Assembly (NCBI RefSeq): GCF_018350175.1
Contig: NC_058368.1
Coordinates: forward strand, 80,602,001-80,666,000
Reading direction: 5' to 3'
Length of the DNA stretch: 64,000 nt
Source: Felis catus
Taxonomy: Eukaryota
Shown: positions 1 to 4,785 of the stretch, piece after piece
How the letters are laid out: each line of letters starts with the position of its first letter
Numbering within the stretch: the stretch's first letter is position 1
The notes under the pieces: generated by a model
What the model was told of the DNA's origin: nothing
The model's input: the letters and a program-made list of their open reading frames with translations, nothing else
The model's database searches: none
Translations under genes and position numbers: made by a program

Positions 1-779
1 ATACGGTTCAGATTTTTCCCTCGAAGTGCTTGAGGGTTTTGTGCTCTGTGTACCATGAGGGGTTTGCACTTAAAGTCACCCTTGGCATTGGCACATAATA
101 GCAAGGTTGCACGGTCTTTGAATGATTTAAAGCCAGGAGCCTTGGAGGCCATTTGCATTATATAGGTTCGTCTGCCAACATTCTTGTAAAACAAGCCTGT
201 CTCATCAGCGTTGAAAACCTGCTCTTCCATATAACCCTTTTCATGTATAATGCTTAGCAGATACTTTTTAAATTCTTCTGCAGCTTCCTCATCTGCAGGA
301 CCTGCCTTCTGTCCAAGTTTAACGTTTTTCATGTGGTATCGCCTTTTGAAACGTGCAAGCCAGCCTGCACTAGCTGAGAAGGGTTTAACCTTTTCCTGAC
401 CCTGGGTAACATGACTGTAAATTTCCTTGGCTTTCAGCCTCACAACAACACTGTCTACCATGCTCTTTTTATTGGTTGTCATCTCCTGAATCCACAAATT
501 TAGCTGCTTTTCCATCTTTTCCATAGCCGCATCACGCACTATAGATGTTACTTTAGCACTTTCTGGAGCAGCCTCACGTACAGATCGGCGAATATCGTCT
601 TCCTTTTTCTGGATGTACCGTATTGTTGATTCATTAACGTTGAACTCACGGCCAACAGCACTGTAACTCAGGCCTGAACGAAGCTTATCTAACACACGTA
701 TTTTCTCTGTAAGGCACATCACAGCCTTCTTGCGCTTAGGAACATTAGACAGTGCTTTAGCGCTACGCTTGGGGGCCAT
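1..779 (-). CDS. Uninterrupted pogo/Tigger-family transposase ORF (TIGD/CENP-B-like), 5' part only; runs off the window start
   Basis: Manual translation of the reverse strand from ATG 779-777: MAPKRSAKALSNVPKRKKAVMCLTEKIRVLDKLRSGLSYSAVGREFNVNESTIRYIQKKEDDIRRSVREAAPESAKVTSIVRDAAMEKMEKQLNLWIQEMTTNKKSMVDSVVVRLKAKEIYSHVTQGQEKVKPFSASAGWLARFKRRYHMKNVKLGQKAGPADEEAAEEFKKYLLSIIHEKGYMEEQVFNADETGLFYKNVGRRTYIMQMASKAPGFKSFKDRATLLLCANAKGDFKCKPLMVHRAQNPQALRGKNLNR... (259 codons, no stop, no frameshift). Contains a psq-type HTH, a CENP-B-type HTH (FSASAGWLARFKRR), the first catalytic Asp motif VFNADETG (D192, nt 206-204) and KDRxTLLLxANAxGDFK. An in-frame TAA (782-780) lies directly before the ATG. Family identity is secure; expression is unproven. 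Confidence 0.8.
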   Translation of the reverse strand, partial: MAPKRSAKALSNVPKRKKAVMCLTEKIRVLDKLRSGLSYSAVGREFNVNESTIRYIQKKEDDIRRSVREAAPESAKVTSIVRDAAMEKMEKQLNLWIQEMTTNKKSMVDSVVVRLKAKEIYSHVTQGQEKVKPFSASAGWLARFKRRYHMKNVKLGQKAGPADEEAAEEFKKYLLSIIHEKGYMEEQVFNADETGLFYKNVGRRTYIMQMASKAPGFKSFKDRATLLLCANAKGDFKCKPLMVHRAQNPQALRGKNLNR

Positions 780-1038
780 TTAAAATAGCAAAGTCACCAA
801 GAAGAACCACAAAAATGTGAAAAACGTGATGCCAGTAGAGAGTGAAAAGGACATCTGCTTACCTTAGGAGCTGAAGCAAGAGGGCAGAGCACAGTCTTGT
901 TCAAGTTTAGCTGGGAATGTGTGTCATGTCTGTGAATGACTGGGAAAGTGCCACCAGTATTGATTTTGGGGTTACAAACAAATTTTATCAAGTAGGTGAA
1001 TTTGCACAGAATCCGTGAATGAATGAGGACGTGGACTG
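1..1038 (-). mobile_element. Tigger (TcMar-Tigger/pogo) DNA transposon, left end; 5' non-coding part resembles MER82-type elements
   Basis: Minus strand reads TA|CAGTCCACGTCCTCATTCATTCACGGATTCTGTGCAAATTCACCTACTTGATAAAATTTGTTTGTAACCCCAAAATCAATAC...: a TA target site at 1040-1039, then a CAGT-starting TIR-like end, leading into the transposase ORF. Subfamily name is from memory. Confidence 0.85.
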
Positions 1039-2497
1039 TATTTGTATGGGTCTCTTGCCAAAACAAAAAAACCCAACCAAACAAAAACAGTGATCAGTAA
1101 AAATGGTTTAGTATAAAAATGTCTTACTTTAGCATACTGTTTTGTTGCAGGAAGTGGAATGGAAAGACGCTGAAGGAGAACAGAATGTAAAATGTCTGAC
1201 TTTTAAACAAGGAATTTGTTCATTAATTTTTTAAGATGGAGAATGGCTATTTCTACTGTTTTTTGAGCTACTGGACATAATTTTAAAGCATATTTAACAG
1301 TTTCAAAATGTCCTCAAGACATCAGAAATTAAAGCTTTGCAACTACTTAAAATTATTAAGCATGCATATTTGGTGCATACTTTTTCAAAATTCTTTTATG
1401 GAGAGGAGCAAATGGACCAGGAAGCAGCTTTGGTTTATCTGTTCACAGAAAAAAAAAAAAAATCCGTTCAATTTGGAGGAAATATGTTGGCAATTTCTTC
1501 TAAGGATTTTTAAATTGTAGGAAAAAAAGGGTCTGATTTTTGCCCTCTTTGTACTTCTTAACACCCTTGTTTTTCGTTTTGATTTATAACTTTAAAAGAC
1601 CCAAGCTTGAAATGAAACCAGAGTATTCCTGTAAGGCCTGATGGAATGCTGTGATATCCCCATACAAGGACAAAAGTGCCCTGAATGTCCTTAGATGCTA
1701 GAGTTCTGGATGATGCTGTAGTGTAGCTCTCAAAACTTAGTCTTCTTATGTGTCAGAACGACAAAGGGCCCTTCTCATGTCTCCGGCTTCTCTCTTGATT
1801 GCTCTCGGTTTTCTTGACTTTTCTGGTCCGGGAGGCTGTCAGTAACTCCTCACAGGTGTGGCAGGTGGCCCTCAAAGTTCTCTCTTGGCAGCCTGCACCG
1901 GGCCCTCCTCGACGCTCTCCGCCCGTGGTAGAGGCCGCAGACAACTGCTTCCTAGCTGACTTGCTCACTGATATGTAACTGGCTATTCTGGTTAATCATT
2001 AATGAAGCACGTGGTGTGTATTCGGGAAGGAAAACATTGCACTTCAATCCCAACATGCATAATTTATGTTGCCAATTATTCTAAATCCTCGTAATAGAAT
2101 ACCGGTTCCACTCTCCCAAGCCGGTGGCTGGGAAGAACTGAAGATAGGGTTCCCTCCAGCCCCTTCAGGGTTGCTCACCGCTGAGGCCCTGCTCTCCGGG
2201 ACCCTCTGGGCAGGGCGGGCTGTGTCCGCTGGGGCCAGGCGAGGATGAGGGCCAAGTGCCGGGAGGAGTCTGCGCGTGGGCTGGGTCAGGTGGGCCGTGT
2301 CAGAGGATGAGAACCACGCGCTGGGTGGAGGAGGCCGCGCGTGGGACCAGGTGCGCAGGTGCGCCCCGTGTCGGAGGACAAGGACCTGGTGCTCGGCGCG
2401 GGGGAGGATGGAGGAGGAGGAGGTGGAGCCCGAGACTGAGACCGCGGGTGGGGCCAGGTGCGCCGCGTCCGAGGACAAGGACAAAGTGCTGTGGGGG

Positions 2498-2527
2498 GGA
2501 GGAGGAGGAGGAGGAGGAGGAGGAGGA
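2498..2527 (+). repeat. (GGA)10 microsatellite within the CpG island
   Basis: Direct reading: a G run followed by ten GGA units. Confidence 0.95.
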
Positions 2528-2654
2528 GGCGGCCGTGGGTGGGGCCAAGTGCAGGGGACAGGCGGCCGCGCGTGGGGCCAGGTGCACCGCGTCTGCCGGC
2601 GCGAGGGCGAGGCCGGAAAAGGCGGTGCGCTGGCCGGCCGGGGCGCGGTCTGAA

Positions 2655-2668
2655 TACGTCACTTCCGG
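2655..2668. promoter_or_regulatory. Overlapping CRE/ETS composite motif
   Basis: TACGTCACTTCCGG (reverse complement CCGGAAGTGACGTA), close to the composite CCGGAAGTGACGTCA motif bound by GABPA and CREB1. Confidence 0.7.
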
Positions 2669-2669
2669 T

Positions 2670-2733
2670 GGCGGCCCACTTCCTGGAGAGGGCTGGGGCC
2701 TGAGATTGGTGCAGCCCAGAGGAAGGAAAGACG
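2670..2733 (+). other. ARHGEF7: Candidate non-coding alternative first exon of ARHGEF7 (short isoform); start approximate
   Basis: Strong donor ACG|GTGAGC (GT at 2734-2735) just downstream of the ETS/CRE motif and 170 nt upstream of the exon 2 acceptor; no ATG in the segment. Confidence 0.55.
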
Positions 2734-2903
2734 GTGAGCGGCGGCGGCGGCCCAGCGGGCGGGCGTCAGGGGCGGCCGGGGTCCCTCCGGGCCGCCGGGG
2801 CCGCCCGTCCGCGTCCTCTCGCCCGGGGCCGCTTGCCGGCGCCGCCCTGGGTCGCGTCCGCGGCCTCCGCGCCGCCGCTCAGCGCCTGTGCTCTGTGTTG
2901 CAG

Positions 2904-2990
2904 GTTTACCCGGAGCCCCGGAGCGAGAGCGAGTGCCTGAGCAATATCCGCGAGTTCCTGCGAGGCTGCGGGGCCTCCCTGCGGCTGGAG
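2904..2990 (+). CDS. ARHGEF7: ARHGEF7 exon 2 (CH domain): VYPEPRSESECLSNIREFLRGCGASLRLE
   Basis: Acceptor ctctgtgttgcag|GTT, donor GAG|gtgagc; 87 nt, phase 0/0; peptide matches the beta-PIX calponin-homology region. Confidence 0.97.
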
Positions 2991-4785
2991 GTGAGCGGGC
3001 GCGGGGCGCCAGGAGGGGGGCGGGCCGGGCTGGCGGCGCCCGGAGGCCCGGGGGAAGGGAGCGAGCGCGGTCGCGGGGCGGGGAGGGGCCGCTGCGTGCA
3101 GCCCCGAACTGGGCTGTCGTCGCTCTGAAGAAGAGCCTCAGGAGCTCGTGGGTAGGTGTCACGCTTTTGCGAGAACCGTTCCTAAGGGGTGCGGTCGATT
3201 CCTTGTTCCCTGCCTTAGCCTGTGCTTTTAGGGGTTCCCCGGGGGACCCGCATTCAGGGCTGGGTCAGCCCCTTAGAATTTCTAGCAGGTAAGCGGGCAA
3301 AACCGGGCACAAATGAAAGGACCCCGAGCCCTCCCAGCCTCACGCCTTTATCTGCTTTTTTTTCCTACCGCCAGAAGGTAGGCGGTGTTTAGGTTGGAGG
3401 TAAACCTACGTCTTGGGGAGTGTACCCGGCGGGGTGTGTCTGCTGTGTAAGGTTTTGTCACTGTTCTAAATACGGTCTTTCAGCGGCAGTTCTCTGGAAA
3501 CCTCCTTTACAGCTCATTTTACCGTATGATTTTTCCTAACCTTGGGGTAGTGCTTTTGATCCGGAAACCTAGACATTGTTTCATTTGGGAACTCCAGCTC
3601 GAAGTGGTTGTGGTCACGTCTGTGCTTCCATCGTTTCCTCCTGCTGCTTTACCACCTGTTTCCTTATCAGAGCTGAGCTGAGTTTGAGCAGGCTGGCGGA
3701 GAAGAGTATATGAAGGCATCTCCGGTGGAACCTGTTGTGTAAGAGGATTCCATAAAGTTTTCCCCTCCTAGCACAGTCTTAGTGTGGGTTTCTTGGGAGA
3801 AATCTAGAAGTCCAGTCGGTGAGGGCAAGTTTCATGGCAACTCATTTGTTGAAGTTACACTGGCATCAAGAAACCAAAATCCTGTCCTGCGTGATTGTGA
3901 ACATTAAGGTATCTCTTTTGTAGTATTTGAGGTCTGCGAGGAAGTCCCTTACAGGTACCTGAAAGGCTTAGTAGAGATCCCGGAGACCCTAGGGCTGTTT
4001 AGGAGGGGGCAACATTTCAGAAAGGCTTTGTCATCTTGTTCTGGACTCCCCTATTGGGCTGTGAGAATATGTGTTCCTGGTAGCAACGTTTGCTTTTCCT
4101 TGACCTTTGTTGTGAGACTATTTTCATCAAACTGAGTTTTGGTTGTGATAGTAAATTTGAAATTCAGTTTGCACATTAAATTTACAACCTCACAACTTCA
4201 GTGTTCAGTGTAGGACTCTGTAAGAAAGTATTAAAGTGGAGTCTTAAAAACCCTTTACCTTTCGCTCTCCAGAGGCTGCTGTTGAAATTTCATATCCTGT
4301 CTATCTTTATAACGAAGAGTTTAATGATGCTGTAGGAGAGGTCACTAACTTATCCCAAGCATCTAGAACAGTTCTTGGAGTTATAGTAGGCCTTCAATAA
4401 ATCTGCAGTTGATAGCAAATAATTGATTTTTTTGTTTATAAGGAAACTTGTGGCTAGTTTTTAAAGAGTTTTAAATTTTAAATTCGGTAAATAAATTTGA
4501 GAGGCATGTTTTGTTAGCATACTTTCAGTTTCCGTAGTAAGTCACACTTCAAACTCCTAATTGCCTAGGATAATGAAAATAACAAAACACATCAAAACTC
4601 TCACATTGTTGAGTCACTCTGGTTTTTGTTTTGTTGTAGGAAGTTACCCTGAAAAATGAGTTCTGTATGGTGTGAATCCTACTTGGGCTTCCAGACTTGT
4701 TCTGATCTGTGGTGTGAAGGTACTGGCCTATTCCCTGAAAGGTGGCCTTGCGTGCGGAGCACATGCAGCAGTTTCCCAGGGTTTT

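Follow-up and report, generated by a model that had tools for sequence, protein, structure and literature searches.

We identified the first 259 codons of a pogo/Tigger transposase at one edge of the window, by which we mean the whole stretch of cat DNA analysed here (64,000 nucleotides). Judging from sequence comparisons, it is probable that the element entered an intron of ARHGEF7 before the boreoeutherian split and that its transposase has been kept under purifying selection in cats, bears and horses, as a host gene whose product would bind DNA without cutting it. The original prediction, which was made from the CpG pattern of the frame, had favoured selection over young age. A tree resembling the mammal phylogeny, relative rates and the decay of CpG-containing Arg codons in other lineages all lend support to that preference.

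The transposase frame and its genomic setting

The features of the window that bear on this gene are as follows.

3..779, minus strand: pogo/Tigger transposase frame, codons 1-259 (ATG at 779, open to the window edge)
582..737, minus strand: CENP-B_N helix-turn-helix, aa 15-66 (Pfam PF04218, E 1.2e-8)
321..521, minus strand: HTH_Tnp_Tc5, second DNA-binding domain, aa 87-153 (Pfam PF03221, E 4.4e-13; match to CENP-B 1HLV)
204..206, minus strand: first catalytic Asp, D192 (from the alignment with relatives)
18..119, minus strand: start of DDE_1, aa 221-254 (Pfam PF03184, E 9.5e-6)
780..1038, minus strand: non-coding 5' part of the element (starts CAGT; 3 CpGs; frame offsets relative to horse and armadillo)
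871 and 862, in the 5' part, minus strand: candidate splice acceptor (871) and donor-like site (862), both predicted
1039..1040: TA immediately beyond the element end, as expected of a target-site duplication (the opposite end of the element is outside the window)
2176..2181, minus strand: putative donor site for antisense splicing (GT 2178-2177), bordering the CpG island and proposed from a consensus scan
2201..3350 (about): CpG island, with motifs that we take to be ETS-like (2660-2668 and 2677-2683) and GC boxes
2904..2990, plus strand: ARHGEF7 CH-domain exon (29/29 residues identical to PDB 2L3G residues 66-94, E 1e-14)

The domain order CENP-B_N, HTH_Tnp_Tc5, DDE_1 is that of a pogo/Tigger transposase. 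A database protein of 592 amino acids, P0053, is identical to the frame over all 259 residues encoded in the window, and two further triad positions, D307 and S341, lie left of the window in this full-length protein. The triad D192, D307, S341 has the form DD33S in place of the intact DDD of an active Tigger. Among the 57 rows aligned at the third triad column, Asp occurs in 44, Asn in 8, Ser in 3 and Glu in 2, with the serine being found in cat, bear and horse.

A structure model (mean pLDDT 78, pTM 0.56) contains two helical DNA-binding units and a strand-rich core, and its best fold matches, which are modest (E about 6e-4), are to the Mos1 transposase and the CENP-B DNA-binding domain. The predicted product is a sequence-specific DNA-binding protein lacking cutting activity. 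Its catalytic domain is conserved like its DNA-binding part (169/180 and 109/119 residues identical to horse, respectively), so that the former likely has a structural or partner-binding role. Equal conservation of the catalytic domain is not predicted by a role in DNA binding alone.

The 5' end of the element starts with CAGT, which also appears as a Tigger end among the TIR motifs in the accessible portions of the PMC7386202 and PMC9219625 supplements. No inverted repeat was found in 780-1300, and the three short two-copy direct repeats in that interval are likely due to chance. On the minus strand at 855-875, the donor-like site at 862 sits 8 nt after the acceptor-like site at 871, and either could shape the 5' UTR. 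There was no second copy of the element within the 64-kb window. The search for neutral copies from which to derive a consensus was likewise negative: none of the 402 pattern matches from a protein-level scan of metagenome contigs was confirmed, and motif scans returned none in viral contigs and none in genome contigs. A single motif match in a metagenome contig was rejected as an element copy and attributed to chance. The 5' end of the element may resemble MER82. In the available text of the respective papers, MER82 is listed among the human Mariner/Tc1 families (PMC5753468) and a CTCF site in a MER82 copy is described as conserved in human and mouse (PMC6979391). Membership of the Tigger7 (MER44) subfamily was considered and seems unlikely, the trimmed Repbase TIGGER7 peptide being clearly different from the window protein by eye.

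Since the exon at 2904-2990 encodes part of the ARHGEF7 CH domain (2L3G), the intron upstream of this exon is the one that holds the element, in antisense orientation. From its sequence, the CpG island is likely an internal ARHGEF7 promoter and could also serve the transposase gene as a bidirectional promoter. About 1.2 kb separates the island from the end of the element, and CpGs are sparse on the way from the ORF to the island (1 to 3 or fewer per 200 nt, 801 to 1800). Within the island, the consensus scan also gave a plus-strand donor-like site at 2734, and the interval 2400-2530 holds two runs of GGA triplets together with short duplicated GC-rich blocks. A head-to-head position at a CpG island has been described for 8 of 13 human Tigger-derived genes in the part of PMC2777200 available. 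ARHGEF7-AS2 is placed elsewhere in the accessible text of PMC13729714. Six RNA runs contain 0.96, 0.86, 0.68, 0.48, 0.22 and 0.16 of the words of the stretch, values that we do not count as evidence of transcription; an intronic stretch of this kind also occurs in ARHGEF7 pre-mRNA. In the mechanism that we propose, an antisense transcript with a spliced 5' exon would arise from the island promoter, and the protein translated from it is predicted to bind the terminal repeats of its own transposon family.

CpG distribution and divergence of the frame

The original prediction rested on a manual count of CpGs in nt 1-779, which a script recount matched exactly. The interval has 22 CpGs, of which 16 occupy codon positions 1-2 (every one of them in an Arg CGN codon), 5 span codon junctions and 1 is at positions 2-3 (Ala84, GCG). 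The four intact CGA codons that had been reported (65, 147, 204 and 253) were reproduced, as were the only 3 CpGs of 780-1038, at 825, 1014 and 1030. Taken alone, the contrast in density between the ORF and this 5' part (22/778 versus 3/258 dinucleotides) is not significant (p 0.16).

The phase distribution departs strongly from equal phases (chi-square 16.5, p 2.7e-4), and an equal skew was seen in 0 of 77 control tiles, these being tiles of 777 nt taken from elsewhere in the window, each with 10 or more CpGs. Relative to positional base composition, the CpG ratios for the three phases are 1.73, 0.08 and 0.31. The third position preceding a codon that starts with G is C in 5 cases and T in 34, compared with 44 and 43 preceding other codons (p 6e-5), and NCG occurs once versus 19 occurrences of NCA (p 0.002 relative to the other four-fold boxes). 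Silent CpGs are depleted in the ORF. Their density there (6 in 777) is similar to that of the 5' part (3 in 259), and the background CpG observed/expected ratio of the window is fairly high, mostly 0.3-0.5.

According to the part of PMC12050414 available, a CpG skew of this kind is expected in any vertebrate coding sequence. Some of the skew may also be ancestral, having been brought in by the transposon, and the caveat that had accompanied the prediction, that ancestral codon usage may explain part of the skew, stands. A selected transposase in a methylating host would already show the skew, so the skew alone gives no date for the selection. It is the retention of 13 out of 13 ancestral Arg codons (see below), and not the skew, that requires selection after insertion. 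We envisage that CpG deamination, acting on a frame presumed to be methylated in the germline, would strip silent CpGs and press on the Arg codons, where either transition alters the protein.

Relative rates were compared with horse as the outgroup. Over residues 1-400, the window lineage has 3 changes and the dog 35 (p 2e-7), and polar bear has 7 against 36 in dog (p 1e-5). The window and bear have accumulated changes almost equally (15 and 16). Differences between the window and the seals (14 versus 23 or 25 changes, p 0.14 and 0.078) and between a camel-like row and the window lineage (p 0.16) are not significant. When the 27 CpG-touched codons are left out, the counts are 2 versus 14 for dog (p 0.004) and 3 versus 18 for otter (p 0.0015), meaning that non-CpG codons have changed 6-7 times more slowly in the window lineage than in dog and otter. 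Because the slowdown persists without the CpG codons, low methylation alone does not explain it. The fast lineages count as two independent controls (canid and mustelid-like), not four.

Codons 1-259 align with horse, bear, colugo and armadillo as a single gap-free block, with no stop or indel. In horse, the annotated protein extends further upstream, and this added portion is the 5' part of the element in translation. Equal divergence of coding and non-coding DNA, which had been named in advance as counting against selection, was not observed in one small test: window and horse are identical at 237/259 residues of the ORF and at 11/20 of the 5' pseudo-translation (best of three frames; p 6e-5). 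The horse and armadillo extensions can be matched only with frame offsets, which points to indels that are limited to the 5' part and spare the ORF; the indels that had been suspected there are in this way supported without the use of a consensus. The divergence of the 5' part matches that of neutral DNA.

A neutral simulation at an assumed distance of 0.25, taken as the cat-horse value, and with assumed rates that include tenfold CpG transitions, gave an identity of 56% (49-62%) and about 7 stops, left 1 of the 16 Arg codons in place, and produced no stop-free run in 150. At a distance of 0.10, 3.7 of the 16 Arg codons were kept. Protein-level rates and the retention of CpG-containing Arg codons support purifying selection on the protein.

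Relatives, losses and alternative explanations

Relatives were gathered by three protein searches and three cluster look-ups and come from a wide range of placental mammals. In a quick tree of 42 selected rows, with SH-aLRT support only, they divide into group A, which includes the window protein (support 99), group B and the armadillo protein. Within group A, colugo and further rows fall on one side and the equids, camel plus further rows, and carnivores on the other, with the carnivores split into feliforms and caniforms (canid, ursid and phocid). The group A tree follows the mammal phylogeny, which we used as a yardstick, and the insertion is therefore likely to be old. A single insertion inherited since the boreoeutherian ancestor is likely from these data; the orthology of the group A proteins is one that we infer from the tree and from shared residues. 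The Tigger would accordingly have inserted antisense in the ARHGEF7 intron before the boreoeutherian split. Both the tree and the match of the 5' part in horse are consistent with one shared genomic position across species.

Intact proteins of 592-612 amino acids are found in the cat family, bears and equids and are 90-92% identical, these being species that split more than 50 million years ago. The fishing-cat protein differs from the window protein (P0053) at 5 of 592 residues. Only two cat-family lineages, 77-78% identical, were present among the protein matches, which contained no cloud of near-identical copies.

Group B, comprising proteins P0008, P0009, P0012 and P0087 with their clusters, is a second lineage of the same transposase. 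Its catalytic domain is shortened by a four-residue deletion, and the third Asp is present for the most part. Intact members occur in cats, bears, seals, equids, whales, squirrel and colugo and have a species-like tree of their own, and from its sequences group B looks like a separate domesticated gene; the human copy, P0211, is broken. The armadillo protein, P0005, has the full DDD triad without the group B deletion and could be either a third domestication or an orthologue of A or B. Two rows, P0049 and P0059, are identical to group B over their first 36 and 56 residues and belong to group A for the remainder; they are likely assembly chimeras between paralogues or products of gene conversion. 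P0165, which has 807 residues and is related to the 58% identical outgroup, is extended at its N terminus by repeat-rich sequence and is possibly a host-transposase fusion in a non-mammal.

We defined 13 ancestral Arg sites, all CGN in the window, from horse, P0004, colugo and armadillo, using no carnivore, and tabulated their loss in 26 rows, of which 2 lie outside group A. None of the 13 has been lost in the window lineage, fishing cat, polar bear or brown bear, and none of 11 in P0049. Black bear has lost 1 of 13, harbour and Weddell seals 2 each and elephant seal 4, and the losses out of 13 are 8 in dog, 7 in raccoon dog, 7 in otter and 8 in P0169. Three rows of 203 residues have lost 3, 3 and 5 of 12, P0113 3 of 11 and the Steller sea lion 0 of 2. 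Single losses occur in horse, P0006 and P0062 and none in P0004 and colugo; the low values of horse, P0004 and colugo are partly by construction, because these rows helped to define the Arg set. Two broken rows, the camel-like P0148 and P0046, have nonetheless lost only 1/13 and 1/12.

At the 16 CGN codons of the window, the dog differs at 9, in 8 cases by His, Cys or Gln, compared with 21 differences in the 243 codons elsewhere (p 7e-6). His, Cys and Gln are the expected products of CpG deamination at Arg codons, as stated in the portion of PMC12050414 available, and their presence in dog makes it likely that the Arg sites are methylated and hypermutable when free. Several of the 203-residue relatives stop just before codon 204, which is CGA in the window. 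Thirteen of the 16 CGN sites are Arg even in the 58% identical outgroup. In the proposed mechanism, selection would purge Arg changes where the gene is kept, and changes would accumulate after its loss, as in canids, mustelids and others.

Dog, raccoon dog, otter, sea lions, elephant seal, camels and several other rows carry a broken or decayed version, so that the gene is dispensable. The raccoon-dog protein is annotated with 586 amino acids yet is decayed, so a long frame alone is weak evidence; protein databases favour intact frames. The elephant-seal protein P0045 ends at 413 amino acids with a foreign tail that, in our reading, presumably resembles the start of a carnivore SINE, which suggests loss by insertion. 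In the sea-lion proteins P0168 and P0207, most of the catalytic domain is gone through a large in-frame internal deletion.

The preserved Arg codons could in principle belong to a neutral copy that the nearby CpG island has shielded from methylation in the cat lineage and whose Arg-rich pattern was simply inherited. The island is close enough to the element for this to be conceivable (about 1.2 kb), shielding by a CpG island has been proposed in the part of PMC2777200 available, and the 13 of 16 sites that are Arg in the distant outgroup agree with inheritance. However, non-CpG codons are slowed as well, by the same 6-7 times relative to dog and otter, silent CpGs are depleted, the DNA from the ORF to the island is CpG-poor, and 259 codons have remained without stop or indel relative to horse, colugo and armadillo; we consider this account quite unlikely. 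Constraint could instead act at the level of DNA or RNA, through an enhancer, ARHGEF7 splicing or an antisense transcript, and not on the protein; this would fit the location in an intron next to a promoter island, but the CpGs track the minus-strand codon phase, with silent ones depleted and Arg kept, and indels are confined to the non-coding part. It seems extremely improbable.

A young element, or a separate recent entry into each lineage by transposition or horizontal transfer, would account for the intact frame, the TA flank and the recognisable end. It is very unlikely in view of the mammal-like phylogeny recovered in two separate clades, the presence among the protein matches of only the two cat-family lineages (77-78% identical) with no near-identical cloud, and a 5' part diverged like neutral DNA. 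The gene could instead have been selected in early mammals and now be decaying in the window's lineage as it has in dogs, mustelids, sea lions and camels. There have been at least several independent losses among the relatives, and in codons 1-259 the window and fishing cat differ twice, both times by Arg-to-Gln at CpG-type codons, which could mark early relaxation. Position 250, though, is Gln in several intact rows and so looks tolerant, the four CGA codons are intact, and the fishing cat differs at only 5 of all 592 residues, so that ongoing decay appears unlikely to us.

Related genes and implications

A likely domesticated transposase gene retained in cats, bears and horses invites comparison with the known Tigger-derived genes. 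RefSeq names relatives of the window protein TIGD1 or TIGD1-like, by automatic transfer. TIGD1 resembles the window frame in having a whole frame with CENP-B_N, HTH_Tnp_Tc5 and DDE_1 and in lying antisense to a host CpG-island promoter, but in the accessible part of PMC2777200 it is a recent domestication beside EIF4E2. It is found in primates only, with a DD32D triad, whereas the window frame is in ARHGEF7, has DD33S and occurs in carnivores, equids and colugo. On the basis of host gene, triad and non-primate range, we rejected the identification of the window frame as a TIGD1 orthologue. TIGD2, TIGD5, TIGD7, JRK, JRKL and CENPBD1 share with it, as far as the available sources describe them, the domain order, approximate length and purifying selection. 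The third triad residue is changed here too: TIGD2 is given as DD34S and TIGD7 as DD34N in the accessible text of PMC7325037. None of these six was among the protein matches at the thresholds used.

Group B and the armadillo protein come from the same transposase lineage and are 77-80% identical to the window protein. They differ from it in that group B has the four-residue deletion and mostly keeps the third Asp, and the armadillo protein has DDD and no deletion. CENP-B shares the paired helix-turn-helix DNA-binding module (1HLV), and SETMAR an RNase H-like transposase domain resembling Mos1 and Metnase. The 592-residue protein differs from both in having no added host domain in Pfam; transposase fusions to host domains are the subject of bioRxiv 10.1101/2020.05.07.082677, to judge from the part of it available.

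Some of these proteins have appeared in a published tree. In the accessible portion of PMC7325037, clade 53 ('Tigger 1') includes leaves from bear, horse, donkey, colugo and armadillo and leaves of group B, beside an alligator protein, and that portion does not single them out. PMC7386202, in the part available, counts 12 genes derived from pogo and leaves out TIGD1-like sequences for their likeness to pseudogenes. Motifs of the window protein were not found in the partly legible text of its supplements, nor did they match in searches of the available PMC9219625 supplement. A description of the ARHGEF7-intron locus was not found in a full-text search that covered mainly open-access literature. 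The frame is likely an unnamed TIGD-like domesticated gene that has been lost repeatedly and has a sister paralogue.

The list of pogo-derived mammalian genes, of which a dozen are recognised, thereby gains a likely domesticated transposase gene and its sister. Such a gene could escape surveys that concentrate on human and mouse, and in one survey TIGD1-like sequences were left out as pseudogene-like. The intact and decayed copies of carnivores show CpG-Arg decay switching on once constraint is lost, and offer a comparison for work on function. Biologically, the CpG signature as such brings nothing new; here it served as a flag for domestication that could be read from a single genome.

A broader hypothesis, which we regard as possible although doubtful, is that a single Tigger lineage gave rise to two or three domestications close to the placental root (the ARHGEF7 gene, group B and the armadillo protein) and that the products are lineage-variable transcription factors which read the terminal repeats of their own family's non-autonomous copies. 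If this were true, the repeated losses in canids, mustelids, sea lions and camels, and that of group B in human, would be a natural experiment in transposase-derived regulators, and the genes would be a surviving record of the transposase of a family whose known fossils are perhaps all non-autonomous.
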